DNA from: an uncultured bacterium
GTDB lineage: Bacteria > Verrucomicrobiota > Verrucomicrobiia > Verrucomicrobiales > DEV007
Assembly: GCA_963977015.1 (NCBI GenBank)
Contig: CAXBMO010000004.1
Location: 1-64,000 of the forward strand
Length of the DNA: 64,000 bases
Reading direction: 5' to 3'
The notes beneath the pieces are model-generated. The model had not been told where the DNA came from and made no database searches. It saw only the letters and a program-made list of their open reading frames with translations. Of the stretch, positions 9,417 through 33,409 are shown one piece after another. Positions within the stretch are counted from its first letter, which is position 1; every line of letters begins with the position of its first letter. The position numbers and the translations under genes are program-made.

Positions 9417-11348
9417 TCATTGGCCATTTGATTCAAGCCTTAGCCAGCCTAGCTCATGGATTCGCCGGCCATAATACCTTGCGCCTTCCACGGTGTAGTG
9501 GCCGTAGTCGTAAAACACTTTTCGTCCTTCCGGCGTGACTGCGAGACAGGTTTTTCGCTCCGGGTTGCTCATGTATTCTGCTTTTTCCAAGAGAACTGCC
9601 CCGGTCTTCCTGGCGATCTTGCGGATCTCCGCGTTGATGGGAGGCACTTCGTCCAGTTTACGATTGTCCCACAAAAACCGGTTAATATCATCAAATGTGT
9701 AGCTCCCCTGAGGTGTGTTCCGCACAAACCAGTCAAATGGCGGCAGATTCTCAATATACAGAAACTCGATCGTATTGGTAGCGACCAGAACATTCTTCCC
9801 TCGCTGCTGAAGGCTCCGTATCACATGTTCCAAATTCTCAATATCACGAACGCCCCCATGTTCTTTGTGGTTGGGAGCCGCAATCCGGCTAGAGATCAGC
9901 ACATGATCTGCCTTTTTAAACTTTTTGGTTTGATAGAATTCTTGAAATATGGCATCCGGCTCTCCAATTTCCAAGTTGTAGAGACAAAACTCCATGTTCG
10001 GGAAGCCGTCCTGGTTTAGCATCAATGCTACATAGAAGTCGATCGCGTGAGAATCTCCAACAATAAGGACTTTTTCCGTATCCTCTTTTGTTGAAAATTC
10101 TGGCTGTTTTTCACAGAAGAATGCTGCTTTGCCATTTTTCTCTCTCTTCAGTAGAGTATTGTCGAATTCGTAGTGGTTGTAAAGTGCTGCGAGTTTGGGA
10201 AAGCGATTCATGATCCCTCCTTCAGCCAATACGGCTCCGGAAAAAACTATGATCGCCGCGGTCGCCATCCCCATGGATGTGGCAAACTTTGGCAGGGAAA
10301 TCCTGACCGGTTTCCGGAAAAACTGTTCCACCGTAAAATAGGTCACCGAGGCGAGAATCACGGACACCCCTAGAAGCGAGAGTTTCTCCCACATGCCCAG
10401 GGAATGGTCATGAATCCTGGCGAACGCAAAGACCGGATAGTGCCAGAGATAGAGCGAATAGGAGATCAAGCCAATGAACACCATCACCTTGGTGGAGAGC
10501 AGCCGAATGACCAGACCTCCCGATCCGGCCGTAGCAATAAGCAGAACGGTTCCCCCCACACAAACCGTCGTGATCAGGCCCGGGTGGTTGTTCTGCCCAA
10601 CCCCGATAAAGGAACCGATAATCATGACAGTTCCCAGCAACGGAAGCGATCCTCGAGGAAGCCAACCAAGCTTGAGCCATGGCTTTCGATCATCGAGAAA
10701 CACCAGCATTCCCCCAGCAAGAAGCTCCCAAAGGCGACTGGGCAGCATGTAAAACGAAAAGGAAGGGTGAATTTTCGTGAGCCAGACGGCAGCCCCAAGA
10801 CTGGCAATCATCAAGAGGAGAAGAACACTAGGCAAAACCCTCGGCATCGTTCTCCAGAGGAATAATAAGAGTAGCGGGTAAAGAATGTAGAATTGCTCCT
10901 CGACCGCCAGAGACCAAGTATGAAGAAAAGGCCTCAACAAGGCGGATTCAGCCCCGTATTCCTGCAAGCTGAAGAGCCAATAGGCGTTGGAACAAAATCC
11001 GAGCGAGGCCAGCAGGGACTTCACAAAGTCGATCAGTGCGGACGGGAGCAGCAGAAACCAGGCGACCGGCAACGAAACCAGCATCACGGTTAGCAAGGCA
11101 GGGAGGATACGCCTCGCTCTGCGCTTGTAGAAATTGGCGATCGAAATCGTTCCTGTTTGCAACCATTCCCTTCTCAAGATTGAGGTGATCAGAAACCCGG
11201 AAATCACGAAAAACACATCAACCCCGAGAAATCCACCTTGGAGCAAAATCCCGTCTCCAAGAGCGAACTCCGCGTGGTAAATCAGCACCCCCAAGACTGC
11301 GAGTGTTCGCAGTCCGTCAATTTCCGGACGGTAGTGGATTCCGTTCAT
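9417..11348 (-). CDS. OafA/YrhL-type O-acyltransferase (AT3 plus SGNH domain)
   Basis: YRPEIDGLR, GFLGVDVFFVISGFLIT, HTWSLAVEEQFY, ISYSLYLWHYP, VGDSHA, DYGHYT. Confidence 0.92.
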   Translation of the reverse strand: MNGIHYRPEIDGLRTLAVLGVLIYHAEFALGDGILLQGGFLGVDVFFVISGFLITSILRREWLQTGTISIANFYKRRARRILPALLTVMLVSLPVAWFLLLPSALIDFVKSLLASLGFCSNAYWLFSLQEYGAESALLRPFLHTWSLAVEEQFYILYPLLLLFLWRTMPRVLPSVLLLLMIASLGAAVWLTKIHPSFSFYMLPSRLWELLAGGMLVFLDDRKPWLKLGWLPRGSLPLLGTVMIIGSFIGVGQNNHPGLITTVCVGGTVLLIATAGSGGLVIRLLSTKVMVFIGLISYSLYLWHYPVFAFARIHDHSLGMWEKLSLLGVSVILASVTYFTVEQFFRKPVRISLPKFATSMGMATAAIIVFSGAVLAEGGIMNRFPKLAALYNHYEFDNTLLKREKNGKAAFFCEKQPEFSTKEDTEKVLIVGDSHAIDFYVALMLNQDGFPNMEFCLYNLEIGEPDAIFQEFYQTKKFKKADHVLISSRIAAPNHKEHGGVRDIENLEHVIRSLQQRGKNVLVATNTIEFLYIENLPPFDWFVRNTPQGSYTFDDINRFLWDNRKLDEVPPINAEIRKIARKTGAVLLEKAEYMSNPERKTCLAVTPEGRKVFYDYGHYTVEGARYYGRRIHELGWLRLESNGQ

Positions 11349-13035: not shown

Positions 13036-13168
13036 CGATTCTTACAAATCGTTTTTGAAGCAATTTTTCTTGTCCCAGCTTTCAGATAGGCTCTGAAATT
13101 TCCCGCAATATTGGGTGCAAAGCCTAATCACGACGTAAGTCATCTTCATTTCCTGGAATAAATGCCGG

Positions 13169-14233
13169 TTATGTCTCTCGATTTCCTCTCCTGAATCTAT
13201 CAACTGCCTTGTGCGCCATCCAAAGCCAGTGATGAGAGGTCATGTTGATCAAAAAACAAAGCTGAAACCAGACTCTCCCGCCGAGTGAAGCCGATCGCTT
13301 TACGGCACGGGCATAACGATGAAGGCGTTCAGCTCTGCGAATTGTAGAGCTATACTTTCCAACTGTCGCTCCATCCAATCGCTTCAAGCCCGCCGAATAA
13401 CGATTGACGCGGTGTTCATAGGCCTGATCGCGTCCAGAGTTATTCACTGCCGCGGTGATGTTGCCGTCGTGGACCCGATAAACACACATGGGGCGGTCGA
13501 GATAGATTGCATCCCCCTTGGTCAGCAGCAAATAGGCCAGAAACTTGTCCCCCCCATGAACTTCACAAAACCAACCCGGCAATCCGGCTGGCGTCCGAAA
13601 CACCATCGAACAGGTCCGTATGCACCAATATTGAAGCACCGTAGAAAAGTCCATGCGTTGGCGATCCTTCCACAGTTTTTGATCGAGTTTTGGAGAAATG
13701 CCGGGTCGGTCCACTTTCCACGAATGAAACACGAGAGCGACACTGTCATCGTTTTGCAAAACGTCGATTTGCCGCTGCAACTTGGTCTGATCGCACCAGT
13801 AATCGTCTCCCTCGAGTAAGGCCATAAAGGGAGCCCGGCCACATGTTTGGTACAGTTCCATGGCCGTAACTGTTCCCGGCATTTCTGGAAACGGATTCCA
13901 CAAATTTCGCTTCGCCAGGATCAAGCGAATCCGATCCGGGTATTTCCGTTGGTAATTCAAAACGATTTCCCGAGTTCCATCGGTGGAGAAATCATCTCCA
14001 ATCACGATCTCAAAGGGAAAATCGGTTTCCTGCTCAAGCACACTTTCGATGGCTTGCTCAATGTATGATCTATGATTATAGGTAATCAGCCAGACGCTGA
14101 CCAACGGTTCGGTGGGAACTGTATCCGAACGAATCTCTTCAATTTCGGTATCAATAAGTTCCTGGACTTTTCGCCCGGTCTCGCAATCCCCAAGATCGAA
14201 CATCCATTCACATTTCTCGGAAACCTGCTGCAT
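13169..14233 (-). CDS. Glycosyltransferase family 2
   Basis: PLVSVWLITYNH, IEQAIESVLEQ, IVIGDDFSTDGT, ALLEGDDYW..KLQRQ. The start at 14233 overlaps the upstream stop (TGATG). Confidence 0.9.
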   Translation of the reverse strand: MQQVSEKCEWMFDLGDCETGRKVQELIDTEIEEIRSDTVPTEPLVSVWLITYNHRSYIEQAIESVLEQETDFPFEIVIGDDFSTDGTREIVLNYQRKYPDRIRLILAKRNLWNPFPEMPGTVTAMELYQTCGRAPFMALLEGDDYWCDQTKLQRQIDVLQNDDSVALVFHSWKVDRPGISPKLDQKLWKDRQRMDFSTVLQYWCIRTCSMVFRTPAGLPGWFCEVHGGDKFLAYLLLTKGDAIYLDRPMCVYRVHDGNITAAVNNSGRDQAYEHRVNRYSAGLKRLDGATVGKYSSTIRRAERLHRYARAVKRSASLGGRVWFQLCFLINMTSHHWLWMAHKAVDRFRRGNRET

Positions 14234-15360
14234 CAGTTTAGGTTCACACATTCGCGAAACACGGAACAAATCCATGCGATATCATCCGTTGATACCGTAG
14301 TTCCCGTGGGCAGAACAATGACCCTCTGGCAAAGGTTTTCCGTCACTGGCAGCAGGAGACCAGCGCTGGGAAAGGAGCTGCAGTAGGGTTCCATCCGGTG
14401 ACATCCTGGATAAAAATAACGGCGCGCGATTACATTATGCCGGTGAAGGTATTCGACGATCATGTCTCGGGATTTCGAGCACCGCTTTGAGTCCACTTCT
14501 ACTACAACATACTGCCAGTTGCAGCTTTCGTTTTCGTCATAGCTAATCAGCGAAATCCCCGGCAACCCTGCTAGTCCATCTTGATAAGCATCAAAATTCC
14601 CTCGATTCACAGCGATAAATTCCTCAATACTTTCGAGATTCGTCAACCCCATCGCTGCCGATATCTCACTCATTTTGCCGTTTGTTCCGATGTAGTCTAC
14701 CTGATCGTAATTGGTAAATCCAAAGTTTCTCATCAGCCGCATTTTGTTGGCTAATTCCCCGTTATTGGTTGTGACGATCCCTCCCTCAAAAGCATTAACA
14801 AACTTAGTAGCGTGCAGGCTGAAAACCTCTGCTTCCCCAAACCCTCCGATCATCCTGCCCTGAGAGGAACAACCAAGCGCATGTGAGGCATCAAAAAGCA
14901 GTTTCAAACCATGACGCCGAGCGATATCCTCCAGTCCTGATATGTCGCAGGATCTCCCCCAGCAATGAACTCCAAGAATGCCGCTGGTGCGTGGTGTAAT
15001 CAGGTCCTCAATCTTGCTCGGGTCGAGGTTGTGCGTCACGGGATCTACATCGCAAAACACCGGTGTAATTGCCTGCCATTGAAGACAATGTGCCGTGGCG
15101 ATAAAGGTGAACGAAGGAACAATCACCTCCCCTTCCAAACCAGCAGCTCGGGCTGCGATCTCCAAGCCGATCGTTCCATTGCACATCGCCACACAATGCT
15201 TTACACCAAGCAATTCAGAGAATTTCCGCTCAAGCTCTTCGCAGAACTGCCCGCCATTACTCAACCAGCGGCTTTCAAGGATCTCGCAAGTCCTCTTCAG
15301 AAAAACTTCTTGATCGCCGATATTTGGGCGGCCTACAAAAAAGTCACGATTGCCAATCAT
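14233..15360 (-). CDS. DegT/DnrJ PLP aminotransferase, VioA/DesI-like (NDP-4-keto-6-deoxyhexose aminotransferase)
   Basis: SRWLSNGG, CNGTIGL, PSFTFIAT, FDASHALG, SLHATKFVNAFEGG, GTNGKMSE, ARRYFYP. Confidence 0.85.
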   Translation of the reverse strand: MIGNRDFFVGRPNIGDQEVFLKRTCEILESRWLSNGGQFCEELERKFSELLGVKHCVAMCNGTIGLEIAARAAGLEGEVIVPSFTFIATAHCLQWQAITPVFCDVDPVTHNLDPSKIEDLITPRTSGILGVHCWGRSCDISGLEDIARRHGLKLLFDASHALGCSSQGRMIGGFGEAEVFSLHATKFVNAFEGGIVTTNNGELANKMRLMRNFGFTNYDQVDYIGTNGKMSEISAAMGLTNLESIEEFIAVNRGNFDAYQDGLAGLPGISLISYDENESCNWQYVVVEVDSKRCSKSRDMIVEYLHRHNVIARRYFYPGCHRMEPYCSSFPSAGLLLPVTENLCQRVIVLPTGTTVSTDDIAWICSVFRECVNLN

Positions 15361-16349
15361 TCTCCTTCAAGCTCCTTCTTTGCTGCGTCCCTTACCAATC
15401 TGTCCAACCATTCATGCATATTAATTCCCGCCTTTGCAACGGCCTCCCAAGCCAAATCCTTGGTCTTCGGCGTTACCCCTTCCAAGCGTCCCTCATAACG
15501 TGTGCGGTAGGTCCCGCCACGAATGCCGGGAATCGGAAAATCAAAATTGGCTGTCGGTTCGCCTTCGTCCACTTTAAACTCGATCAGATAAAACGCCTGT
15601 CCAATCACGAAATGGATCGAGGTCTCCCGCGCCTCGACCGGGATAGCCCCGAGCGGCAGCGGTGCCTCGAACATCGGGTTCGTCTCCTTAAGTATTCGGA
15701 AATATTGGGACTCGCGCAGCCACACCGGCACGCTCTCGTCACCGGCGACGACCTTGCCGCCAGGTTTCGCCACCCGTGCCATCTCCTTCAAAGCGCGAGC
15801 CGGGTCGGAGAATTCTCCGAGCGCGCCGAAGCTGTAAACCGCGTCGAAGTAATCGTTCGGATAAGGAAGGTGCAGGGCGTTGGCGAGGACGAAGCTCGCC
15901 ACGGCGGGATGTTGCCCGAGTTTCTTCCAGCATACCCGCATCATGTCGGCGGAAAGGTCCTGGAGATGTAGTTCCCCTGTGGCACCAACTCGATCGGCAA
16001 GGAGAACCGAGTCCCTGCCTGTGCCGCAGGCGATTTCGAGTACTTTTGATCCCTGACCGATCTCAAGTTTGTCGATGAACGACTGCCGCGTCGACGTCTC
16101 GTCGAGTCCATGGGTGAGAAAGGTTAGGTGTAGTGTGTCCTCATACTGGTCGGCACGACCGTCATAGAACGCCCGGGAGGACTCTTCGGCCACGCCAAGG
16201 CGACGGGGAAAGACCAGGTCGGCGACGCCTTCTATGACAGGATAGCGCGCGCCCTCTGATGTGAGCAGCGCAGTCGTCGCTGCGGGATCGGAGGAATCGG
16301 GGGTAAGCGAAGTGCGGGTGTCTGGATCGACCAAGGCGGAGAAATTCAT
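15357..16349 (-). CDS. Class I SAM methyltransferase with N-terminal Trm112-like segment
   Basis: LEIACGTG, DLSADMM, NALHLPYPNDYFDAV, EMARVAKPGG; N-terminal LVDP..YPVIEGVADL; ATGA overlap at the start. Confidence 0.85.
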   Translation of the reverse strand: MNFSALVDPDTRTSLTPDSSDPAATTALLTSEGARYPVIEGVADLVFPRRLGVAEESSRAFYDGRADQYEDTLHLTFLTHGLDETSTRQSFIDKLEIGQGSKVLEIACGTGRDSVLLADRVGATGELHLQDLSADMMRVCWKKLGQHPAVASFVLANALHLPYPNDYFDAVYSFGALGEFSDPARALKEMARVAKPGGKVVAGDESVPVWLRESQYFRILKETNPMFEAPLPLGAIPVEARETSIHFVIGQAFYLIEFKVDEGEPTANFDFPIPGIRGGTYRTRYEGRLEGVTPKTKDLAWEAVAKAGINMHEWLDRLVRDAAKKELEGE

Positions 16350-16927
16350 ATATCGGAATGGGATTGGGTTTCTTCCCAAGTGGAGCGGAGAAGGTCGTAA
16401 TGTATGCAGTCAATACTAATGCCGTTCTTGCGGAAGGCTTCATGCTCATAATAGAGCTTGCGGAAGCCGAACTTGAGTATGAGTCCCTCCGACGCGGCGT
16501 TGCCGACATGGTGAGCGACGACCAGTTTATTCAATCCTAGGTCGCGGAAGGCGAAGGCGATCACCGCGCGTCCAGCTTCGGTCATGAAACCTTGCCGCTG
16601 TTCGGCCGGAGCAAGCCAGTAGGCGAGTTCGGCACGGTCATATTCAATGGCCCTGTGCCGTCCGCAGATGTCGATGAGGGAAAAAAGGCCAACGATGCGC
16701 CCCTCGCGTCGCACGGCCCAGTGTATCGCCCGGCGTGCTTCTAGTGCACGGACCGCATCCTCGAGAAAAGCCTGACTTTGTTCCACGGTGGAATGGGAGC
16801 TCCACGCCATATCTTTCGATATCTCCGGATCCGACAAGAGTGGGAAAAACGTTTCGGCGTCGCTCACTTCGACGGGCCGCAGCTCAAGGCGCGTGGTGGT
16901 AAGGTTCCAAGAGGCGGGTTCGTTCAT
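16346..16927 (-). CDS. GNAT N-acyltransferase, RimJ/RimL type
   Basis: LTTTRLELRP, AELAYWL, QRQGFMTEA, NAASEGLILKFGF. Confidence 0.85.
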   Translation of the reverse strand: MNEPASWNLTTTRLELRPVEVSDAETFFPLLSDPEISKDMAWSSHSTVEQSQAFLEDAVRALEARRAIHWAVRREGRIVGLFSLIDICGRHRAIEYDRAELAYWLAPAEQRQGFMTEAGRAVIAFAFRDLGLNKLVVAHHVGNAASEGLILKFGFRKLYYEHEAFRKNGISIDCIHYDLLRSTWEETQSHSDI

Positions 16928-17868
16928 GACGTCAGTTTGCGGCGTGCGGCCCCGAATCCTCCGCACCCGAAATGGTTTCCGTTGTAAAAGAGCCAGGTAT
17001 CCCCACTGATGGCGGCGACGTCAGGGTAGGCGAGCATCTCCGAATCCCAGTCGTCGGGACCTAGGCCGATACCGGCGAGGGCATCGTTCCGCTCCCAGTG
17101 AACAAGGTCACAGGAGGAGGCGTAGCCGATGCGGTAAGATCCGTCGCCGCCACGGAAAGCCTCGCTCGAGCGACAGCAAAACCAGAGATGAAAGCGGCCA
17201 TTCTCCGCCAGCATCGTCGGTTTGGTAATGGCTTCGTTCGGACGCGACTGAGGCACGACAACCTTCCCGGTCTGCTCCCAGCGTATCCCGTCGTGCGAGC
17301 GGGCCAATTTCAGATCGTAGGTGTGCTCGAGCTTGCCTTCTACATCGACCCAAGCGATGCCAGAACAGTAAAACATGTACCACTGCCCTTCGTGGATGAA
17401 GACATGAGGAGATGTCGCTGAGTAAGGCTCCCAAGGGGTGCGATCGAGGATCGGGCCGGATCCGATCTTCGAAAAAGTCTTACCGCCGTCCTCGCTGACG
17501 GCGAGACCGGTGAAATTGGCGTAGGGCAGAGTGGTGCCCCGCGACCAACCACTGTAGTAAAGGTAAATCGTTCCGTCGTGCTCCACAACGCTGCTCGGCA
17601 TGACGCCGTGCTCATCGAACATCCCCTGGCCCCCGAGCGGCAGGATCGGCTCGGGACGCAAATAGACCTCCCGACGGAGATCCGACGCGTCGAGATCTAC
17701 GTAGGTGGTGAGGCTGAGATCGGGCTTTGGGCGCGTCGAAAAATAGACCCTAACGAGCCCCTCTGAGGCACGCGGAAGGACCGTCGGAACCTGAGCATGC
17801 GTATTCATCCAACCATTCTGCCCCCGGGGTTCAAAAAGAACACCCTGCTTTATCCACTGCTGATTCAT
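16924..17868 (-). CDS. Five-bladed beta-propeller protein (GH43/GH32/GH130-like fold) of glycan loci
   Basis: Repeated blades: LYYSGW, AVSEDGGKTF, MFYCSG, ARSHDGIRW, IGYASS.DLVHW, LFYNGN.FG. Confidence 0.65.
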   Translation of the reverse strand: MNQQWIKQGVLFEPRGQNGWMNTHAQVPTVLPRASEGLVRVYFSTRPKPDLSLTTYVDLDASDLRREVYLRPEPILPLGGQGMFDEHGVMPSSVVEHDGTIYLYYSGWSRGTTLPYANFTGLAVSEDGGKTFSKIGSGPILDRTPWEPYSATSPHVFIHEGQWYMFYCSGIAWVDVEGKLEHTYDLKLARSHDGIRWEQTGKVVVPQSRPNEAITKPTMLAENGRFHLWFCCRSSEAFRGGDGSYRIGYASSCDLVHWERNDALAGIGLGPDDWDSEMLAYPDVAAISGDTWLFYNGNHFGCGGFGAARRKLTS

Positions 17869-17959
17869 TTCGAAGATCGTTTCACTTCTCTTTTCTTCTT
17901 AAAAACAAAGATGACGTTGGCATCAACGAGTCAATTACCACGTGCAACCTTAAGCATTC

Positions 17960-18709
17960 TTACAACTTTGCAGCACATGAATTGAGGACCTTTTTCAACT
18001 TACCTCTACAAATCCGCTGGAAATTGCCGCCTTGAATGGCATACGCCAATACTCCAAGTAATGAAGCATTCGAATTTGGGGCGACGTTTTTGACAGGAAA
18101 AGGAATGTTTGGCTTTTCGACTCCGAGAAATGAACATAGCTCGTGCCACCCTTCCCCATTGGTAATGTCCATTCTTATAAACCGAGCAGCTTTTGATTCA
18201 AAAAATGCCTCCACCTCTGCGTTAGCCGAAATATAATAGTCGATAATCTTGTCCCGAGCGCCTTCTAACTTCTTAATTTGAAAAACATTCCGGAAAAACA
18301 ATGCCGAGCCATACGCTCCTCTTTGATGGTAAGACTCTAGAGCAGTAGCTAAATCTTCATCCTCGGCAAAACTTGTTATCATTCGCTCAAATGAATTATA
18401 CCACATTTCCGGATCCCTAACCGTTTGAACAAAAAAGGCATCCGGATACCAATCATATAATTGCTTATATAGCCCCCCCCCTCCCCAAGGACCGTCCGCG
18501 AAAGCATCCCAGTAATGCGTCATACGGCGAAGCTCTTCGAAGTTTCGATCTACATACAGCGCTAGATTATAGTCGTTGTGCTTCAACCTCCAATCCCCTT
18601 TGCACACATTCCTCCCAAGGTTTTCAAAAGCAGCTTCCAACGAAGTTGTTCCTGTCTTCGAGAAACCTACACCGAAAATTTTTGGCTTATCTAGTTGGGT
18701 CATCCACAA
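17960..18709 (-). CDS. Sulfotransferase family protein (Sulfotransfer_4-like)
   Basis: KIFGVGFSKTGTTSL, DAFADGPW, YPDAFFVQTVRDPEMWYNS, EGWHELCSFLG..PFP..N. Confidence 0.8.
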   Translation of the reverse strand: MWMTQLDKPKIFGVGFSKTGTTSLEAAFENLGRNVCKGDWRLKHNDYNLALYVDRNFEELRRMTHYWDAFADGPWGGGGLYKQLYDWYPDAFFVQTVRDPEMWYNSFERMITSFAEDEDLATALESYHQRGAYGSALFFRNVFQIKKLEGARDKIIDYYISANAEVEAFFESKAARFIRMDITNGEGWHELCSFLGVEKPNIPFPVKNVAPNSNASLLGVLAYAIQGGNFQRICRGKLKKVLNSCAAKL

Positions 18710-18721
18710 TCACACTTTGAG

Positions 18722-19408
18722 TTAAAGATCATCAAAATTAACCATCCGAACAAACTGGGCGCTATTCAAACGGAATGCTTTGGATGACTCCGTGAGAAAA
18801 ACTTCGTCATCGTCCGTGCATTTGGTAACCAGGGCATTGGCTCCAATGAAACAGCGTTCCCCCACCGTAACACCATGCCCCACAGTACTGTTAACCGCAA
18901 AGAAGCAGTTGTTACCAGCCGTGACCACCCCAGAAATGTTGGCGCAGGATGTCAGCCAGCAATGGTCACCAATCGTGGAATGATGACCGATCATTGCACC
19001 ACTCCAAACGAAAACGTTATCGCCCAGGATCACTCGGGGATGAATGAGAGTATTCTGCATGAGAAAACAGTTTTCTCCAATTTGACAATCTTTGGGAACG
19101 CCGGCGTCCGGATGCACATACGAAATCAAGTGGTACCCCTTTTGACGAGCTTCATCCACTTTTCTGGCGCGTAGGCCGTTCATCTCTTGATAACCTAAAA
19201 CCACGAACATATCATAAGCTTCGGCTGGAAAGGCGCCAGCTACTTCATCAAATGGAACAACGGGCAATCCATTCCAAGCTTCACCTGGCAAATGTTCTCG
19301 GTCCACAGTTATGGCAGACACTTCGTAGTCACTATGGTGCTGCAGGTAGTAGAGGACAACTTCCGCAATTTTTCCGGCACCAAAAAGGACAATAGGCTTC
19401 ATAGACAA
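18722..19408 (-). CDS. NeuD/PglD-type hexapeptide-repeat acyltransferase
   Basis: IVLFGAGKIAE N-terminal domain, LISYVHP, IGENCF/LGDNVF/IGHHSTIGDHCW hexapeptides. Confidence 0.85.
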   Translation of the reverse strand: MSMKPIVLFGAGKIAEVVLYYLQHHSDYEVSAITVDREHLPGEAWNGLPVVPFDEVAGAFPAEAYDMFVVLGYQEMNGLRARKVDEARQKGYHLISYVHPDAGVPKDCQIGENCFLMQNTLIHPRVILGDNVFVWSGAMIGHHSTIGDHCWLTSCANISGVVTAGNNCFFAVNSTVGHGVTVGERCFIGANALVTKCTDDDEVFLTESSKAFRLNSAQFVRMVNFDDL

Positions 19409-19432
19409 ACAAATTGGATTTCAGGATTGCTT

Positions 19433-20983
19433 TTAAAGAGCTTGCCGATCGATCTTACCGTTGGCGTTTTTCGGTAGTTGCTCGAGGATCGAGATCGTCT
19501 TCGGCATCATATAGGGAGGCAGGTATCGGGACGCTTCTTCAAGCAGTTCTTCCGTGCAGCGTTCCCGAGATAATGCGACAAAACCTAGAATCATACCCAT
19601 ACCTTCTCCTAATTTCTTGTAGACCGCAGCCGCTTCGTTTACTCCGTCCAACGCGTTTAGAGCCGCTTCAATTTCCTCGAGTTCAATCCGGTAGCCCATA
19701 TGTTTGATTTGAAAATCAACCCGGCCTTTAAAATGGAGATGCCCTTGAGGATCCCGCTCCACGAGGTCCCCCGTGCGGTAGCCGATATCTCGAAACAAAT
19801 TGTGGGACGGGTTCTGGACGAAGGCATTCGCTGTGCGCTCAGGGTCATGGTAATAGCCGAGCGCAATTTGCGGTCCGGTTAGAAAAAGTTCCCCAACATT
19901 CGAATCGTCGCCGGTTGCCAGAATTTCATAACCAAAGTTCGGCGCGAGGTAACCAAGCATGGCCAAATTCTTCATATCATCGAGGTCGGCGGAGGAAATG
20001 GTGTGGGCAGAACAGATGCACGTGCCCTCCGTAGGTCCATAGACGTTCTCCAAATCGGCACGGTCGGCGTAAAGTTCGAATAGTTGCTTCAGCTTGGGCT
20101 TGGGAAAACCCTCTCCCCCAAAAATAATCTTACGTACGGACGGAAAATCGTCCTGGCTCAAGGCACGAGTGGTGAGCAGATAGACGAGCAACGATGGGAC
20201 TGAAAACCAGATCGTACAACGGCTTCGACCGATCGCAGTAACCAGTTGTTTGGGATCTTTGGCCACCTCGGTCCCAATCGGCACGAGAGCTGCGCCGTTG
20301 AAGAGCGACGCATAAAAATCAAACACAGAATTGTCAAAGTAGATTGGGTTCGCATTCGAGAAGACATCTTCCGGAGTTATTTCGAAACGATCTCGAGCCC
20401 AGTCGATAAAATGAAGCAGGCTTCCGTGAGAAATAACCGCGCCCTTGGGATAGCCGGTCGATCCTGACGTGAACATGATGTAGGCCGGATCTGCACTCGT
20501 GAAGACTCCAAATCCACGTTCGAGGACTTCAGCTTCACCATCCCCCATCTTCATCGAGGCCAACTTGTCCCCCAGGTGAATCGTTTCCCTGGTAGTGTCT
20601 AGTTCGAGATGATCGATCAACTCACGATTTCTACCAGCCTCAAAAAGATCGACCAGCAATGTCGGCCGACAAGTCTGGAGCATACGTCGCGCACGCTCCG
20701 GCGGACTGGCCGGGTCAAGATTCGTGTAGATGGCACCCAAGCGCAGGCAAGCCAGCATGATCGCGAAAGCGGACGGCGACTTGTCATGAAGGAGAGCCAC
20801 CACATCATGCCTGCCTACCCCCCGCCCTTGTAACAACAGAGCAGCCCGCAAGGAGAGGTCCTGTAATTCCCGATAGCTTGTGACTACCCCGTTGGGATAA
20901 ATCAAGGCTGATCTATCTGGACTTGATTCTGCAATCTTATCAAACTGCTGCGCGAGATTGTAGATATATGGAGATACCATCAA
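19433..20983 (-). CDS. Stand-alone amino-acid adenylation enzyme (DltA-like)
   Basis: AYIMFTSGSTGYPKG, FDNSV, NVYGPTE, YRTGD, GRVDFQIK.MGYRIELEEIE, LPPYMMP, NANGKIDR. Confidence 0.9.
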   Translation of the reverse strand: MMVSPYIYNLAQQFDKIAESSPDRSALIYPNGVVTSYRELQDLSLRAALLLQGRGVGRHDVVALLHDKSPSAFAIMLACLRLGAIYTNLDPASPPERARRMLQTCRPTLLVDLFEAGRNRELIDHLELDTTRETIHLGDKLASMKMGDGEAEVLERGFGVFTSADPAYIMFTSGSTGYPKGAVISHGSLLHFIDWARDRFEITPEDVFSNANPIYFDNSVFDFYASLFNGAALVPIGTEVAKDPKQLVTAIGRSRCTIWFSVPSLLVYLLTTRALSQDDFPSVRKIIFGGEGFPKPKLKQLFELYADRADLENVYGPTEGTCICSAHTISSADLDDMKNLAMLGYLAPNFGYEILATGDDSNVGELFLTGPQIALGYYHDPERTANAFVQNPSHNLFRDIGYRTGDLVERDPQGHLHFKGRVDFQIKHMGYRIELEEIEAALNALDGVNEAAAVYKKLGEGMGMILGFVALSRERCTEELLEEASRYLPPYMMPKTISILEQLPKNANGKIDRQAL

Positions 20984-21021
20984 ATTTTTACTAGAACTGA
21001 GAGAACGAAATCCTATTTCCT

Positions 21022-21771
21022 CTAAAGGGTAAGACCACCATCGATTTCCATGACGGCGCCGTTCACATAATCATTTTCAATGATGAACCGGGCAGTGCGG
21101 TAGATGTCATCTAATGTCCCCAATTTGCGTAATGGAATTCTGCGCTCAAGTTCCGCAATCTTGGCCTCACTTAAGGCCTCCCTTGTGGAGGGAGTGTCAA
21201 TGAAACCGGGGGCGATGGAAGCAAACCGCAGTCCAAAAGGACCAAGCTCTTTAGCCCAAGTCTTCGTTAGGGCATTCACTCCGGCCTTGGCCGCAGAATA
21301 GGCCGATTGCCCGGCATTTCCCTGAGCTGAAATCGAACTCATATTAATCGCGACTCCCTTCCGTCGTTTCCGGACCCAATCGCCAACTGCTGCCCTCGTT
21401 ACGAAGAATGTGGAGTCCAGATTCGACGCCAGAGTGTCTCTCCACGTGTCAACCGAATGAAGCGGATCCAGGCGGTCTAGTAGGTTCACAAGCGGCTCGC
21501 TGTGGATTACACCTGCATTGTTGACAACTACATCGGAAACAAACCCGCTCTCCTCCAACTGTCTTAAGGCGGAGGCAACTTCATCAGCACACGAAAGATC
21601 CGCCACGACCGCCAACACTCCCGAGCATTCAGACTTCAGAGCATCGGCTGCCCCAGCATCCCTCTCGATTGTGGCAACTTTCGCACCTTCGTAGCGGAAT
21701 TTTTCCAAAAGGAAACGCCCAATTCCACGTCCAGCACCAGTGATTAAGATCTGGGATCCTTCAATTCTCAT
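21022..21771 (-). CDS. SDR oxidoreductase, FabG-like
   Basis: ITGAGRGIG, VNNAG, GNAGQSAYSAAK, IAPGFIDT, DGG. Confidence 0.9.
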   Translation of the reverse strand: MRIEGSQILITGAGRGIGRFLLEKFRYEGAKVATIERDAGAADALKSECSGVLAVVADLSCADEVASALRQLEESGFVSDVVVNNAGVIHSEPLVNLLDRLDPLHSVDTWRDTLASNLDSTFFVTRAAVGDWVRKRRKGVAINMSSISAQGNAGQSAYSAAKAGVNALTKTWAKELGPFGLRFASIAPGFIDTPSTREALSEAKIAELERRIPLRKLGTLDDIYRTARFIIENDYVNGAVMEIDGGLTL

Positions 21772-21782
21772 TCAAGATGACG

Positions 21783-22007
21783 CTAAATTTTTCCATACTT
21801 CTCCAACACATTTTTCGCATCCAAAACCGTTTTCAATTCAGCGATTTCATCTCCAGTCATTTGAAACTCATAGATTTGTTCCAAGCGTGTGATGAAAACC
21901 ATGTGGCTCATCGAATCCCATGTAGATAGATCGCTTAAGGAGCACGAATCCTGCACGTTTCCCGCAGGAACTTGAAATACCTCAGACGTAATTTCTTCGA
22001 CGGTCAT
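21783..22007 (-). CDS. Acyl/aminoacyl carrier protein
   Basis: 74 aa acidic protein with WDSMSH phosphopantetheine attachment motif. Confidence 0.88.
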   Translation of the reverse strand: MTVEEITSEVFQVPAGNVQDSCSLSDLSTWDSMSHMVFITRLEQIYEFQMTGDEIAELKTVLDAKNVLEKYGKI

Positions 22008-22037
22008 TGAAAATATGGTATAAAATTAGGTAAGATA

Positions 22038-22745
22038 TTAGGCACAAAGGCGTACATGCCGTAGGGCCGAACAGATTTCCGAAACATCATTGTGCATTAG
22101 CAAATCCAAGATGGACAGATTCGGCCCTTCGCAGCCTCCATGCTTCAACTTGATGTTTTCCCAGTTGGTTTCGAGAAAAATCAGTTCGATTCCACGTTCC
22201 GCAAAATTTTCCCGCTGATACATTTCCCGCCCACCCGACAAATTCACATACTTAGTAGCAGATAAAACTTGGCAAAGGCTCAGAATTCGCTCAGCCCCCC
22301 ACTTTCCGTCCTTTGGAAATTGGGCCGATGTCTCCACAATTTCTGTACTGACACCAAGTTGGTCACGAAGAATCCGAAGGCTGCGTGCGAGGAACCGGCT
22401 CAAGTTGAGTTCGTCAGTATCAAGTAATTCGCGCATAAGCTCTAATCCTTGGTGAAGTTGATGAGAATTTCCATACACGCCTTGAAGCGTTCGGAGCATC
22501 TTCATGCGCCATTCAGAACCTGGCTGAAGTTCAATTTCATTGATCAGCTTGTTCTGACTCGCTTTTACAAGTGGAACCGTCATCCATTGTGCCATCCCGT
22601 CAGATCTCGCGATCCGGTTTCGATTGATCCAACCTCGATTGATATAGTTGACATCATCGAGGATCACAAACCGATCCACTGCTTCCAACAATTGCCAGTA
22701 CCCCAGATAGGGTAGAAAATAGGGTTGCATGATCGCGATTGTCAC
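22038..22745 (-). CDS. WbqC family protein
   Basis: IAIMQPYFLPYLGYWQL, FVILDDVNYINRGWINRNRI, YVNLSGGREMY, LSILDLLM. Confidence 0.9.
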   Translation of the reverse strand: MTIAIMQPYFLPYLGYWQLLEAVDRFVILDDVNYINRGWINRNRIARSDGMAQWMTVPLVKASQNKLINEIELQPGSEWRMKMLRTLQGVYGNSHQLHQGLELMRELLDTDELNLSRFLARSLRILRDQLGVSTEIVETSAQFPKDGKWGAERILSLCQVLSATKYVNLSGGREMYQRENFAERGIELIFLETNWENIKLKHGGCEGPNLSILDLLMHNDVSEICSALRHVRLCA

Positions 22746-22872
22746 AATATCTGGAGTCTCAATTTTAGGTTCTCGGTTATTTTATCATCTTGCTCGATAA
22801 TAGAAAGCAATTGCCTACCACTTGCGCCCAAATGACCTACCGGAAAAAATCTTGTCACGATTCAGCCAATAA

Positions 22873-24198
22873 CTACGGTTGCCGTGACGGCTCGACAGAA
22901 ACCAGAGTTTCCGACAACCACCGACAATGTGCTCTTCTTGGTACTAAGCGGTGTGCCGCACCATTGAGAACCAACTTTTCTATTTCGCAGGCGTTATGAG
23001 GTGGAAACTTGGGTTCCTTCCGTTGGCTTTTCCCGGTTAGACGAAGTAGTCGCTGCTTGGCGAGAATCTGACTAATTCTCCGTCGATCCGTGGCTCCAAG
23101 AAGATTAAGTTCTTCCTTCCGAAAGCTAACAATATCATCTACTCGTTCGAATACCGGTCGAACTCGATCTAAGAAGGTCCCCTGTACATTGGCTATGACC
23201 GGGGCACATTTAGCCAACGCCCTTTGGATCGCCGCCGTGGGTGGATCTGCGATCAGACGCCGCTCTATCGCACGAAATACTTCATCCTCAGTGTAGGTCA
23301 CTTCGCTGATTTCAACCGGCAACGTCTGCGTGCCTGCATAGACACCATTCGGAAGGTAGGATATAGGATGATGACCACTGAACAACGCCTCAATCGCAGT
23401 AGTGCAGTCGAGGTGAATCACTATCTTCGCGCAGGAACTCGAACGTGAAATGGGTCGTCGGCCATCGTCGACAAATACATTGGGAACCAATGTAAATTTA
23501 TCCTTATAGGTTGCAGCAATTTCAACTGGATGAGGACGAATGAGAATATTAAGATCAGGATACCGCTTACTCAGATTCGATATCAACTCGAAATACGATT
23601 TCATATCCATCTTACTCTGTTCGATCGATTTGCGCTGATCGTTAGTGAGTTGTTTTCCGTTATAGATCCGAGAGTTGCAAGGAGTGAACTTTGTGTTGAT
23701 TAGAATGTACGGACGTAACTTGGAGATCTCCTGATCTAGATCGGCATGATAGCCGGCCAGTTCTTTTTTACATAGATCAAACCGCGGGTTTCCAGTGATC
23801 ATAACCTGGTCACTGGAGAACCGCTCAGGCAATCCCCTCATCAAATTTGCCTGCTTGCTGCCCCATGCCCAATAGATTTGTCTTTCTGAGACTGACCCTT
23901 TGGGAAACCGCTTCTCAATTGCCGAATGGTACCGGTTCTCGGGATAAATTCCGCCTTCTTCATCAAGGCATATTCCAAATCCACCATTCTTAACAATATG
24001 ATCCTCTTCCTCGGCGCTCACGCCACCAACTGACTTGTCGATCCACATGACGGGAAACTTATTCCTCATCACCCAAGGCTTGATCGACTCCCTTCGTCCC
24101 ACTAGGCTTGTGAAACCAAGTTCCGAGAGTTGGCACGCAGTCAGGAAACGGGGTTCAAAGTCTCTTACCCGAGTTTCAGTAATCCAGCAAAGAATCAT
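22873..24198 (-). CDS. Surface carbohydrate biosynthesis protein (TIGR04396-like, probable GT-B fold)
   Basis: ETRVRDF, LDEEGG, WGSKQ, TGNPRFDL, ILINTKF, IRPHPVE, HLDCTTAIEA. Start taken at ATG 24198. Confidence 0.7.
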   Translation of the reverse strand: MILCWITETRVRDFEPRFLTACQLSELGFTSLVGRRESIKPWVMRNKFPVMWIDKSVGGVSAEEEDHIVKNGGFGICLDEEGGIYPENRYHSAIEKRFPKGSVSERQIYWAWGSKQANLMRGLPERFSSDQVMITGNPRFDLCKKELAGYHADLDQEISKLRPYILINTKFTPCNSRIYNGKQLTNDQRKSIEQSKMDMKSYFELISNLSKRYPDLNILIRPHPVEIAATYKDKFTLVPNVFVDDGRRPISRSSSCAKIVIHLDCTTAIEALFSGHHPISYLPNGVYAGTQTLPVEISEVTYTEDEVFRAIERRLIADPPTAAIQRALAKCAPVIANVQGTFLDRVRPVFERVDDIVSFRKEELNLLGATDRRRISQILAKQRLLRLTGKSQRKEPKFPPHNACEIEKLVLNGAAHRLVPRRAHCRWLSETLVSVEPSRQP

Positions 24199-24199
24199 C

Positions 24200-25264
24200 T
24201 TAGTCTTCCGCCTTGTAAAGTCGCAATTCCGAATGAAACCCATCCACAGTTTTAAACCCAAATGGATAGACATTGGTCGCAACCAGCTCGAAGCCGCGAG
24301 CTCTGAACATTCGGTCGTAATCACTCCCAAGTATGGGCCGATCAACTCCCCAAGGGCAGGTCTCGGATCGCTTCGGTTTCCCCTCTCTCAGATTCCGTAT
24401 CAATGCATATTTTGACTCAAGCCGCTGCATATGATCGAGATAATGCTCAACGATCTCAGGTTCCATTTCCTGAAACGAAATGAAATTGACAAACAGATCG
24501 ATTGGGCCTCGAATTTTTTCCAATTGCCAGGGGCACACAACCAAGGCAGAGCCACTAAATTTGTCCATTTCAATTTCAGCGGCACGTTTAGCAAACTGAT
24601 AGTCAAAAAAGGAACCTTCAGGATAAATAGAATTTAAATAGTAGGACGCGGCGAAAGCAGATGGTGGAATGTCTACGTCAACATACGCATAATCCCGGTC
24701 CGTATCCTTAAGAAGAATCTCACCCAACGTCCCGAAGCCGCCACCAACCTCCAACACCTTTGATAGATCGGATGTATCAACATTCTGTTTTAGAAAAACC
24801 AACCCGTTCAGATAATTCAACATGGATCGACTGAAGTTTCTTCCTTCAAAATTCCAATGTTCATCTGGACACCCCACTTTCGATTCCGAGCAATTGGAAA
24901 GGTGCGGGGGTTGGTCTGCCCTGTCTCCTGCCATGTAGGTCCGATAATCAGAATTTGCTAGATATGCACCGTTCCTAAGCCACTCAAACAATGCCCGCCC
25001 TTTTTGAGTTTCTAATTTTTCATTACCAGGAAGATTGGCGATCAATTCAACAAATTCCTGTCCGTAAAATGCCAGAGAGTCTAATTGATAGGTAGGAACG
25101 AAGCACCGCTTGGCACCAGGAAGCTGACGGAAGTTTTTGATATTCTCACCACACAGTTCAGTGCCTATTTCCAACAAGGCCTTCTCCCAGAACTGCGATG
25201 GCCTGTGGAGGGCACTTTGACATGACATATCGGACAACATTTCATCGAGAAGATTAGCTTTCAT
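24200..25264 (-). CDS. Putative sugar O-methyltransferase (TIGR04371-like)
   Basis: PSQFW, ESKVGCP, VLEVGGGFGTLG, VDIPP, DLFVNFISFQEM. Confidence 0.8.
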   Translation of the reverse strand: MKANLLDEMLSDMSCQSALHRPSQFWEKALLEIGTELCGENIKNFRQLPGAKRCFVPTYQLDSLAFYGQEFVELIANLPGNEKLETQKGRALFEWLRNGAYLANSDYRTYMAGDRADQPPHLSNCSESKVGCPDEHWNFEGRNFSRSMLNYLNGLVFLKQNVDTSDLSKVLEVGGGFGTLGEILLKDTDRDYAYVDVDIPPSAFAASYYLNSIYPEGSFFDYQFAKRAAEIEMDKFSGSALVVCPWQLEKIRGPIDLFVNFISFQEMEPEIVEHYLDHMQRLESKYALIRNLREGKPKRSETCPWGVDRPILGSDYDRMFRARGFELVATNVYPFGFKTVDGFHSELRLYKAED

Positions 25265-25345
25265 ATTATTGAGTTCTGTCTTTGATAATCGGACTCGAGT
25301 TTCGCCAGATCACTACTGGCACAGATTCGGTAAAATCGGGTGATA

Positions 25346-26407
25346 CTATACGCCTCCGACACCCAATAAATCCCAATCAAGCGGAGTTCCTCGCTCAATA
25401 TCCACGGCAGCGAAACGCCCCAATACCTGTGTGATGAATTTAGGTGGCAAGCCATGACCCGGCCGGATCGCACGGATGTTTTCCGCTGTAAATGCCTCCC
25501 CAGCTCGAATACGTTTTACCGCGAATAAAGAGCGCCGGTAGTCCCGTATCCCGATATCCGCGCTGACGGGACCATAGTTAACTTCACCCATGGCCTTTTC
25601 CGCGATACGGACTGCATCGACCATCGCTTTAAACTCATTTGGCTCCAGCGAGAAGGCGCTATCGGGCCCGCCATCAGTTCGACGCAACGTTAAGTGTTTC
25701 TCGATTATGCCAGCCCCCACAGCAGCCGAAGCCACAGGGACCGCAATTCCCATGGTATGGTCGGAAAGCCCGGCAACGACTCCAAAAGCTTCGGCCAAGT
25801 GCGGGATCGTCCGCAAATTCATGTCTTCAGGAGGTGACGGGTAGGCACTTGTGCACTTGAGCAGAGCCAAATCATGTGCCCCTCCAGTAATAGCGGCATC
25901 CACCGCTTCGGCAATTTCGCTCAAATTTCCCATCCCGGTGGAAATGATTAGTGGCTTTCCAGTTGCGGCGACCTTTTGAATCAACGGAATATCGACCAAC
26001 TCAAACGAGGCAATTTTGTAGGCTGGAATATCGAGAGTTTGAAGAAAATCCACCGCAGTAGCATCAAAGGGACTACTGAAGAAGTGAACACCAAGTTCTT
26101 TGCATCGCTCAGCTAGCTTTGGCTGCCAATCCCAGGGCATTGAACCTTCGCCGTATATGTCGTGCAAATTTTTGCCGTCCCACATCGTTCCCCCACTGAT
26201 CTGAAAGTGGTCCTGATGAGCATCGATCGTCATTGAATCAGCCGTGTAGGTTTGGACCTTAATCGCATCCGCGCCAGCCTCAACAGCGGCGACCACCAAC
26301 TCCATCGCTTTCGCGAAATCACCGTTGTGGTTCGCAGACAGTTCGGCAATGATCAATGCATGGCCCGAGCGGTAAGTTTTGCCGCCCATGGAAAAGGTGT
26401 CTTTCAT
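25346..26407 (-). CDS. pseI: Pseudaminic acid synthase
   Basis: IIAELSANHNG, KVQTYTADSMT, YKIASFELVD, LKCTSAYP, GLSDHT, GGPDSAFSLEP, RRSLF, IRPGHGL; pse gene context. Confidence 0.93.
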   Translation of the reverse strand: MKDTFSMGGKTYRSGHALIIAELSANHNGDFAKAMELVVAAVEAGADAIKVQTYTADSMTIDAHQDHFQISGGTMWDGKNLHDIYGEGSMPWDWQPKLAERCKELGVHFFSSPFDATAVDFLQTLDIPAYKIASFELVDIPLIQKVAATGKPLIISTGMGNLSEIAEAVDAAITGGAHDLALLKCTSAYPSPPEDMNLRTIPHLAEAFGVVAGLSDHTMGIAVPVASAAVGAGIIEKHLTLRRTDGGPDSAFSLEPNEFKAMVDAVRIAEKAMGEVNYGPVSADIGIRDYRRSLFAVKRIRAGEAFTAENIRAIRPGHGLPPKFITQVLGRFAAVDIERGTPLDWDLLGVGGV

Positions 26408-27110: not shown

Positions 27111-27125
27111 AGCGTCGTCAAAAGG

Positions 27126-29212: not shown

Positions 29213-29213
29213 G

Positions 29214-30281: not shown

Positions 30282-30295
30282 CAAGATAAATTTGA

Positions 30296-31321: not shown

Positions 31322-31324
31322 AAT

Positions 31325-32017: not shown

Positions 32018-32024
32018 TATAAAT

Positions 32025-33257: not shown

Positions 33258-33269
33258 GTTGTAAACTGC

Positions 33270-33333: not shown

Positions 33334-33409
33334 CTCCCGGTCGGATGCCACTGGCTATTGCGCCGATCGGCAGTAGGCCGAAAATCAATTGCCTGCCGAG
33401 CGCTGGGAA

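Follow-up and report, generated by a model that had tools for sequence, protein, structure and literature searches.

The 64,000-nucleotide stretch analyzed here (the window; contig CAXBMO010000004.1) comes from an uncultured bacterium of the Verrucomicrobiota. Within a glycan locus it carries five contiguous genes for a WbqC protein, an acyl carrier protein (ACP), a short-chain dehydrogenase/reductase (SDR), a stand-alone adenylation (A) enzyme, and a hexapeptide N-acyltransferase. We propose, with a probability of about one-half, that these genes serve as a portable module that tailors a nucleotide-linked 4-amino-4,6-dideoxy sugar by N-acylation and that two devices in it would form amides, namely, WbqC as a ligase and the hexapeptide enzyme as a carrier-acyl transferase. 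A narrower version is that WbqC is a minimal, 230-residue ligase resembling BshC and that the hexapeptide enzyme, a left-handed beta-helix protein, replaces a condensation domain and attaches a second amino acid from the carrier, giving a tailored dipeptide-like chain on the nucleotide sugar. We offer this version tentatively, with the odds against it.

All coordinates are those of the window, and the five genes, like the rest of their block, lie on the minus strand. WbqC1 (22038..22745) matched PF08889 with 199.8 bits against a cut-off of 21.3 (E = 6.9e-59); its true start is probably the ATG near 22730, the database gene call being 230 amino acids long. The 74-residue carrier protein (21783..22007), with a WDSM motif and Ser32, reached 21.0 bits with PF00550 (cut-off, 20.8). 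The third gene (21022..21771) encodes a FabG-like classical SDR (adh_short_C2, E = 7.7e-40), and the fourth (19433..20983) encodes the A enzyme, of the amino-acid type (AMP-binding, E = 2.4e-74, plus AMP-binding_C). The hexapeptide enzyme (18722..19408) is of the NeuD/PglB/VioB type and scored 161.4 bits with TIGR03570, where the cut-off is 160.8. The genes point in the same direction with gaps of 30, 11, 38, and 24 nucleotides, and they form the front of an 11-gene block that ends with a DesI-like aminotransferase and a glycosyltransferase of family GT2. An earlier note on this DNA had described this contiguous set and the lack of a condensation or MBOAT domain in the window. Both descriptions hold: none of the 52 distinct window open reading frames (ORFs) scanned matched a Condensation (PF00668), MBOAT, DltD, or ketosynthase family.

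The A enzyme and the carrier together have the makings of a stand-alone (type II) loading pair of a nonribosomal peptide synthetase (NRPS), with the A core motifs and the phosphopantetheine serine of the carrier present and a condensation domain not found. The A enzyme scored highest with amino-acid adenylation and DltA models. It came out just below the cut-off of TIGR01733 (315.9 against 317.4 bits) and failed the DltA equivalogs by a wide distance (TIGR01734, 277.1 against 559.85 bits; NF003417, 288.9 against 476 bits). It carries the motifs FDNSVFD and IIFGGE, as the earlier note had read them. DltA has FCGE at the second motif, with cysteine in place of the glycine of the window enzyme. 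The FDxS aspartate (Asp235) and the C-terminal lysine (Lys517) are retained and are invariant across 10 orthologues. Read by the usual motif rule, the binding pocket consists of Asp235, Asn236, Phe239, Phe278, Ile299, Gly301, Val322, Cys330, Ile331, and Lys517. These residues are identical across nine orthologues except at position 299 (Ile, Val, Thr, or Ala). Because the pocket is constant despite an overall identity of 44-59%, a single substrate appears to be conserved across phyla. Since Asp235 and Lys517 are both kept, this substrate is probably an alpha-amino acid of moderate size. The pocket may resemble Ile/Val-type codes, which makes for a weak guess at the substrate. In the carrier, Asp31, Ser32, His35, and Met36 are invariant in 12 sequences, and the motifs suggest that the A enzyme loads this dedicated carrier on Ser32.

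The closest solved relatives of the SDR are nearly all FabG enzymes (45 matches at E ≤ 1e-25, e.g., 4nbu at 2.8e-35), and its score with the FabG equivalog TIGR01830 was below the cut-off (173.3 against 297.75 bits). Such relatives suggest that some part of the cargo bears a 3-oxo or 3-hydroxy function. One might therefore suppose that the carrier holds a short 3-oxo or 3-hydroxy acid instead of an amino acid and that the A domain substitutes for the ketosynthase III (KSIII) that would build or load this acid. There is precedent for such a group. The viosamine island of Pseudomonas syringae pv. tabaci is described as making N-(3-hydroxybutyryl)viosamine with an ACP, the FabG-like VioR, and the hexapeptide enzyme VioB, and N-(3-hydroxybutyryl)-alanyl-Qui4N is listed as a known structure. 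We nevertheless think a nonamino acid cargo unlikely: the A domain does best against amino-acid adenylation and DltA models, its orthologues all keep the aspartate and lysine named above, and the RimJ-like acetyltransferase of the GNAT family that accompanies part of the loci suggests a free amine for capping.

To see which genes travel with WbqC, we took the best 80 of at least 596 confirmed relatives, with one genome per species, and scored their neighborhoods with the window proteins by phmmer. (One search gave 6437 PF08889 relatives at E ≤ 1e-5.) A DegT-family aminotransferase was present in 71 of these loci, no more than 300 bp from WbqC in 29 of them, and 45 had the hexapeptide enzyme. 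A propeller protein encoded further along the window block was found in 33. The A enzyme (10 loci), carrier (11), and SDR (11) were far rarer. All or part of the A/ACP/SDR set occurred in 12 of the 80 loci, 3 of which are cut by contig ends. They come from Verrucomicrobiota (L001, L002, L008, and L009), Bacteroidota (L033, L036, and L066), and Betaproteobacteria (L021, L045, L050, L055, and L072). L009 is from Prosthecobacter fluviatilis, L045 from Massilia soli, and L055 from Massilia agrisoli; L037, from Flectobacillus roseus, has DegT, WbqC, and the hexapeptide enzyme without A/ACP. In the 60 loci that extend 5 kb or more beyond WbqC in both directions, DegT was found in 58, the hexapeptide enzyme in 33, the propeller in 26, and the carrier and SDR in 8 each. 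In 26 of the 60, DegT and WbqC stood without the hexapeptide enzyme, as in the order GT2, Wzx, WbqC, dehydratase, DegT. The order of the window (WbqC, ACP, SDR, A, hexapeptide enzyme) was repeated in L001, L008, L009, L033, and L050 and, up to the end of the contig, in L002. This recurrence implies that the arrangement is not due to chance.

We then approached the module from the A enzyme. A metagenome scan seeded with an alignment of 10 A orthologues gave 80 loci, many on short contigs. Two subsets of these were tallied: 18 loci where A scored 430 or more and each flank had 3 kb or more, and 17 loci where each flank had 5 kb or more. The SDR, the hexapeptide enzyme, and the propeller were each present in 18/18 and 16/17 of these loci, respectively. 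WbqC was less constant at 14/18 and 15/17, and DegT was found in 16/18 and 13/17. With the 3-kb filter, a methyltransferase (MT340) was present in 14/18 and the GNAT enzyme in 6/18. The count for the carrier (12/18) is a lower bound, as phmmer is insensitive for a protein of 74 residues. In the WbqC-seeded set, the GNAT gene was confined to loci with the A module (5 loci). The module of A, ACP, SDR, hexapeptide enzyme, and propeller is conserved over at least four phyla. The neighborhood statistics that the earlier note had proposed for A, ACP, SDR, and WbqC are lopsided: 8 of the 60 well-flanked WbqC loci have the A gene, and 14 of the 18 A modules have WbqC. The earlier note would have taken a complete want of linkage between WbqC and A/ACP as its refutation. 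A linkage exists, as the 12 of 80 loci show, but it is a minority association, and it is explained by a shared acceptor pathway.

Gene distances and phylogenies separate the hexapeptide enzyme from WbqC. The hexapeptide gene lay within 300 bp of the A gene in 9/9 genome loci with a full-length A gene and in 28/47 metagenome loci holding both. In a tree of 46 hexapeptide sequences, the 11 from A-module loci, window included, formed one side of a branch of length 1.35 (SH-aLRT, 95). The A-module label changed once on this tree, compared to a shuffle mean of 10.1, and none of 500 shuffles was as low. On a WbqC tree of 82 sequences, the same label changed eight times, at least four of the changes being forced by well-supported branches. 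WbqC1 of the window itself fell in a well-supported group of 11, with 6 members from A-module loci and 5 from loci without the module. With the caveat that both trees are quick ones, we assign the hexapeptide enzyme to the A/ACP/SDR unit and WbqC to the aminotransferase unit. The closest solved relatives of the hexapeptide enzyme are PerB and PglD.

BshC and MshC add cysteine to GlcN-malate and GlcN-inositol in bacillithiol and mycothiol synthesis, respectively. The sequence of WbqC had no match among solved structures at E ≤ 10. An AlphaFold (AF2) model built from 30 sequences was confident (pLDDT, 92.1; pTM, 0.88). With VIA-align, this model matched BshC (4wbd_A) at a Z score of 13.3 and a root mean square deviation of 3.2, with 212 of 230 residues aligned. 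Class I lysyl-tRNA synthetase followed at Z 10.7; the cores of the glutamyl-, arginyl-, and cysteinyl-tRNA synthetases were at Z 6-8, MshC was at 6.0, PanC was at 5.2-5.7, and small nucleotidyltransferases were at 5-6. The BshC match stands out because the best Z score for unmatched models is typically 7-8. WbqC would share with BshC and MshC a matching predicted fold, weaker for MshC, and, in our proposal, the type of reaction, the joining of an amino acid to a sugar amine by an amide bond. The link to BshC is one of predicted fold only. BshC has about 520-540 residues against the 230 of WbqC, with no sequence homology detected. Invariant residues of WbqC are Gln2, Pro3, Pro7, Gly10, Tyr11, Asp25, Arg37, Asn38, Ser206, and Asp209.

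The surroundings of WbqC homologues have further parallels with thiol biosynthesis. According to a figure legend, a Streptomyces operon holds GT4, WbqC, and LmbE genes beside a prolyl-tRNA synthetase (ProRS) paralogue and a tRNA. Bacillithiol, the product of cysteine addition by BshC, is methylated by an S-adenosylmethionine (SAM) methyltransferase, which parallels the WbqC-methyltransferase gene pairs in our loci. Among 72 loci, the gene right after WbqC encoded the hexapeptide enzyme 17 times, a methyltransferase 12 times (MT228, 7; MT25, 4; MT24, 1), a GNAT once (L072), and a formyltransferase once (L024). The gene in this position is often of a capping type. The Streptomyces operon also parallels the MshA/MshB/MshC pathway. 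ATP-grasp genes occur in hexapeptide-less WbqC loci (L003, L004, L011, L013, L042, L051, L071, and L073), as does a thiamine pyrophosphate (TPP) enzyme in L003 and L004; these are possibly alternative routes of N-acyl extension.

A contrast within Escherichia coli bears on the same role. A Vibrio DegT-WbqC stretch (L068) used as a query matched E. coli vioA and the DegT/WbqC junction in O121 strains. The O121:H19 cluster begins with galF, tviB, an epimerase/dehydratase gene, rfbB, rfbA, DegT, WbqC, and a GNAT N-acetyltransferase gene. It continues with wzx, GT2, a serine-O-acetyltransferase-like gene, wzy, asnB, and two GT4 genes. The annotated cluster contains no A/ACP, SDR, or hexapeptide N-acyltransferase gene. 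As summarized in two reviews, the O121 antigen has N-acetylglycine on Qui4N. The O7 cluster has vioA-vioB without WbqC, and the title of a cited study gives Qui4NAc as its product. We found O121 wbqC DNA in 13 of 5426 complete E. coli genomes, and all 13 have O121-type clusters. A record labeled E. coli O103 with WbqC was considered as a counter-example and rejected, as it holds an O121-family cluster. WbqC1 is 35% identical to O121 WbqC (E = 4e-42), and a second WbqC paralogue of the window, WbqC2, is 27% identical to it. In the annotation, WbqC is plausibly the only gene left for the glycyl step. For this elimination we presume that asnB, tviB, and the O-acetyltransferase gene serve other O121 residues and that the three glycosyltransferase genes, wzx, and wzy likewise have other roles. 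The order DegT, WbqC, GNAT matches the order of the chemistry, which supports a glycyl role for WbqC. O121 is like the window in that DegT adjoins WbqC and an N-acetyl-type capping enzyme comes after. It differs in having no A, ACP, SDR, or hexapeptide enzyme and in its cap, a small GNAT that is unrelated to the window GNAT.

These results bear on the claim of the earlier note that an acid is adenylated, loaded on the ACP, modified by the SDR, and passed to an amino sugar, with WbqC as a possible recipient of the ACP-bound donor. The first part fits, in that A, ACP, SDR, and hexapeptide enzyme travel together and have the viosamine precedent. The part given to WbqC is not supported. If WbqC were the transferase that moves the carrier thioester to the amino sugar, the hexapeptide enzyme would only acetylate. 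The WbqC and carrier genes do abut each other, both in the window and in L001, L002, L008, L009, L033, and L050, and WbqC accompanies most well-flanked A modules. BshC is also described as probably needing an activated donor, possibly by way of another protein, and the Streptomyces homologue stands beside a ProRS paralogue and a tRNA. Against these points, most well-flanked WbqC loci have no A/ACP genes, and the WbqC phylogeny ignores A/ACP, with its eight changes, where the hexapeptide enzymes form an A-module clade. The predicted fold is that of BshC and nucleotide-binding enzymes like the class I aminoacyl-tRNA synthetases and is unlike an acyltransferase, the O121 WbqC works without A/ACP in its cluster, and 4 of 18 A modules have no WbqC. 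None of 13 longer WbqC fusion proteins has an AMP-binding or PP-binding domain, although such an absence is weak evidence; 10 of them carry a Wzx flippase, 1 a peptidase, and 1 a GNAT. Co-folding of WbqC with the carrier scored 0.00 in both runs, which counts neither for nor against. We consider a carrier-dependent WbqC improbable.

The fusion proteins are of interest in themselves. The ten with a Wzx-type flippase (PF01943/PF13440) have about 730 residues each. WbqC-GNAT fusions, which lend some support to the ligase role, include one 526-residue protein and an atlas cluster of 66 members, for which the commonest known phylum is Uroviricota. Some phages may thus carry WbqC-GNAT chemistry.

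Gene content and co-occurrence, together with the fold match and the contrast between the two phylogenies, lead us to infer the following chemistry, acceptor and acylation order included. The DesI/VioA-like aminotransferase would make the 4-amine of the sugar, as its family suggests. WbqC would ligate an amino acid straight to this 4-amine, probably through an ATP-dependent adenylate, as judged from its fold and from E. coli O121. In parallel, the A enzyme would activate a second acid and load it on Ser32 of the carrier. The FabG-like SDR, the methyltransferase, and, where present, the GNAT may then tailor or cap the carrier-borne group. The hexapeptide transferase, which has co-evolved with the A unit, would take the carrier thioester and acylate the free alpha-amine left by WbqC. 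It would thereby fill the role of an NRPS condensation domain. The product would be a nucleoside diphosphate (NDP) sugar with an N-(acyl- or aminoacyl-)aminoacyl group, ready for use by the GT2 enzyme. Two-part groups of this kind are on record, namely, N-acetylglycyl-Qui4N and N-[(R)-3-hydroxybutyryl]-L-alanyl-Qui4N, and V. vulnificus CMCP6 is mentioned in passing as making Leg5Ac7AcAla.

Several points weigh against this proposal. To our knowledge, no WbqC protein has been characterized biochemically. Foldseek placed BshC in the top row at an E value of 0.086 and had no match at E ≤ 1e-3. Thirty WbqC members searched against Pfam at E ≤ 10 gave WbqC and scattered spurious matches only, with no BshC (PF10079), and hhalign of WbqC with four Bacteroidota BshC sequences gave a probability of 0.2, with no homology signal. 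A 2018 review states that BshC attaches cysteine to the amine of GlcN-malate. This reaction is described as never having been reconstituted; an unidentified activated cysteine is presumed, possibly presented by another protein. Such a presumed donor makes a carrier-borne donor for WbqC conceivable, and the genes for WbqC and the carrier are direct neighbors in the window, as in several other loci. The resemblance of the SDR to a 3-oxoacyl-ACP reductase would suit a plain amino acid less well than a keto or hydroxy acid. Both trees were made by a quick method, and some sequences have long branches. The O121 argument is an elimination from annotation, and the order of the two acylations is part of our proposal. 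In addition, the four well-flanked A modules without WbqC imply that the hexapeptide enzyme there needs another acceptor; A-module loci without WbqC include L085, L096, L111, and L126. Without WbqC, the sugar amine is probably acylated by the hexapeptide enzyme itself. Last, PtmG (Cj1324), the only WbqC member studied genetically, has been tied to the conversion of an acetamido to an acetamidino group and not to aminoacyl addition. The WbqC family may be chemically mixed, or the ligase role may be wrong for this subfamily. The papers that mention WbqC have titles that point to no work on mechanism, and a search for ACP or AMP-binding genes with O antigens found nothing relevant.

PtmG of Campylobacter jejuni and ORF28 of Legionella pneumophila belong to PF08889. 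They suggest a second chemistry for the window, in which the hexapeptide enzyme acylates the 4-amine directly, with the carrier-borne group, and WbqC makes an amidine, perhaps methylated afterward, out of either this amide or a different acetamido group. PtmG and ORF28 lie in nonulosonic-acid loci with a methyltransferase neighbor, as WbqC does, and they are credited with making Leg5Am7Ac. Such acetamidino formation on legionaminic acid is unlike the role that we propose. The methyltransferase genes directly after WbqC recall ptmG-ptmH, and a nucleotide-binding fold could activate an amide oxygen. However, O121 has WbqC, and the review entry for its antigen lists N-acetylglycyl and no amidine. 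The 26 loci with DegT and WbqC have no hexapeptide amide-maker (other acyltransferase types may occur in some of them). Acid-adenylating amide ligases and aminoacyl-tRNA synthetase cores head the fold matches, with no PP-loop amidotransferase among the 50 rows listed. Amidine formation by WbqC1 is thus unlikely in our estimate, and we keep the ligase role for the comparisons below.

Carrier-dependent N-acylation of a 4-amino-6-deoxyhexose is already known genetically from the P. syringae viosamine island. The island is reported to contain vioA, vioB, vioR, vioS, acp, vioM, and vioT, with homologues in the flagellin glycosylation island of P. aeruginosa PAK, and vioA, vioB, vioR, and vioT mutants lose the sugar. 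It resembles the module in its gene types (DegT enzyme, hexapeptide N-acyltransferase, FabG-like reductase, dedicated ACP, and methyltransferase), and what it makes is a nucleotide-linked 4-amino-4,6-dideoxyglucose that is N-acylated and methylated. The set of DegT, hexapeptide enzyme, FabG-like reductase, and ACP all lies within 13169-22745 of the window and is found again in related loci. In contrast to the island, the window has an amino-acid-type A enzyme in place of the KSIII VioS, plus WbqC, the GNAT, and the propeller. The acyl group is probably amino-acid based, unlike the 3-hydroxybutyryl group of viosamine. The likeness is one of gene type.

The stand-alone A domain, the small dedicated carrier, and the missing condensation domain also recall DltA and DltC. 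By that analogy, the carrier might pass its cargo to a membrane acyltransferase with AT3 and SGNH domains (9417..11348), encoded seven genes downstream of the module, for decoration of an exported polymer. We regard this as very improbable. AT3 homologues occurred with the A gene in 0/9 genome loci and 2/77 metagenome loci, and it is the hexapeptide enzyme that is the constant neighbor. The module further differs from DltA/DltC in that no DltB-type MBOAT or DltD was found among the window ORFs scanned, and the transfer that we propose is cytoplasmic, by the hexapeptide enzyme to a nucleotide sugar.

The block continues downstream of the hexapeptide gene on the minus strand. A Sulfotransfer_4 gene (17960..18709; PF17784, 1.4e-32) is inserted in the module and is not part of the conserved set; homologues are found in few related loci (L036, L066, and L151). 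The five-bladed propeller (16924..17868) resembles GH43, GH32, and GH130 proteins, with weak Pfam matches to GH32N/GH43 and a model with a pLDDT of 95.5. Its top Foldseek matches were BT_0996, GH43, GH32, and GH130 beta-1,2-oligomannan phosphorylase. A cytoplasmic propeller of this kind is a constant companion of the A module within a biosynthetic locus, being present in 18/18 well-flanked A-module loci and 33/80 WbqC loci. Next come the RimJ/RimL-like GNAT (16346..16966; Acetyltransf_3, PF13302, 9.3e-30), a candidate N-acetyl cap for a free alpha-amine, and the UbiE-like SAM methyltransferase MT340 (15357..16379; Methyltransf_11, 1.5e-20). The DesI/VioA-like DegT aminotransferase (14233..15360) matched PF01041 at 4.4e-108 and TIGR04427 with 476.6 bits, under the cut-off of 650. 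Its orthologues in L001, L008, L009, L045, L055, L094, and L096 scored about 490-550 bits. The block ends with the GT2 glycosyltransferase (13169..14275; PF00535, 1.2e-16), the likely user of the finished nucleotide sugar, and many related loci also terminate in GT2 genes. Scanning 12500-25500 for promoters and terminators gave numbers like those expected by chance (14 against 11.9 and 11 against 13.6).

The acceptor could instead belong to the pseudaminic acid (Pse) pathway. The glycan locus spans about 68 to 34447 on the minus strand, and upstream of the block it contains PseI, PseF, a PseB-type dehydratase, a DegT enzyme, and a weaker PseG (NCBIfam); the PseG match, in the region of 30296-34447, is under its cut-off (122.5 against 153.55 bits). 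PseH above the cut-off was absent from the source genome, which is 95.3% complete (best score, 32.1 against 93.1 bits), and N7 acylation of Pse may be noncanonical here. The module might then acylate the PseC product and set the N7 acyl group in place of PseH. Modules in L110, L130, L144, L150, and L157 do lie within Pse operons, with WbqC of the WbqC2 type and without a DesI-type DegT. Moreover, in the group II flagellar islands of Aeromonas, pse genes are described as flanking an ACP gene, a 3-oxoacyl-ACP reductase gene, and an AMP-dependent synthetase gene. This trio is like the A/ACP/SDR set by annotation; unlike the module, these islands have LuxC and LuxE and are not described as having WbqC or the hexapeptide enzyme, and the trio is described as fatty-acid-synthesis-like. 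The window block, however, is syntenic with L001, which has its own DesI-type DegT, and with L008 and L009, where an RmlA-type nucleotidyltransferase gene and two epimerase/dehydratase genes lie directly upstream and therefore indicate a dTDP-hexose route. The window module also has its own DegT and GT2 at the distal end. We lean against Pse as the acceptor, with somewhat less conviction than against an amidine, and retain the 4-amino-4,6-dideoxy sugar. The related loci are surrounded either by O-antigen or capsule genes of the ABC-transporter type or by flagellar genes together with TPR-GT41 transferases.

The second paralogue, WbqC2 (26409-27110, minus strand; 215.2 bits with PF08889), is 32% identical to WbqC1. 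It stands together with genes for an FAD amine-oxidase-like enzyme (27126-28529), a methyltransferase (28526-29212), and a divergent DegT (29214-30368). This minus-strand cluster (26409-30368) adjoins PseI and gives the locus its second DegT-WbqC pairing. The amine-oxidase-like enzyme might have an added amino acid as its substrate.

At the end of the locus, a 506-residue protein (68-1588, minus strand) combines a NeuB-family domain (E = 1.6e-39) with a C-terminal cupin, a second and unusual nonulosonic-acid-synthase-like gene. It adjoins a sulfotransferase gene and a Gfo/Idh/MocA oxidoreductase gene. Two sulfotransferase families occur in the locus (1589-2707 and 17960-18709), with a sulfatase just outside (37250-38875), and the glycan is probably sulfated. 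The flanking families are PSD1, PSCyt1/2, and DUF1501, which by themselves would suggest a planctomycete or some other bacterium of the PVC group. Farther away, a 1360-residue ORF (59362-63444, plus strand) had no Pfam match at E ≤ 1e-4.

Compared to the known systems, the new elements are the A enzyme in place of a ketosynthase, the constant module companions (the propeller and MT340), the evidence for the hexapeptide enzyme as carrier partner, and the assignment of WbqC as a proposed amino-acid ligase from fold plus context. The original papers on the O121 and S. dysenteriae type 7 clusters may already propose a glycyl role. N-aminoacyl and two-part N-acyl amino sugars occur here and there in O antigens, in capsules, and in the glycans of flagellin, and they influence antigenicity. 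The review sections concerned name these decorations and not the enzymes adding the amino acid. Our data tie a large uncharacterized family, PF08889, to this amino-acid step through a fold match, a constant aminotransferase partner, and the gene-content contrast in E. coli, and they point to a conserved module that probably extends the amino-sugar decoration. If WbqC is indeed a BshC-like ligase, then simple systems of DegT, WbqC, and a cap would offer a tractable route to the unsolved BshC reaction.

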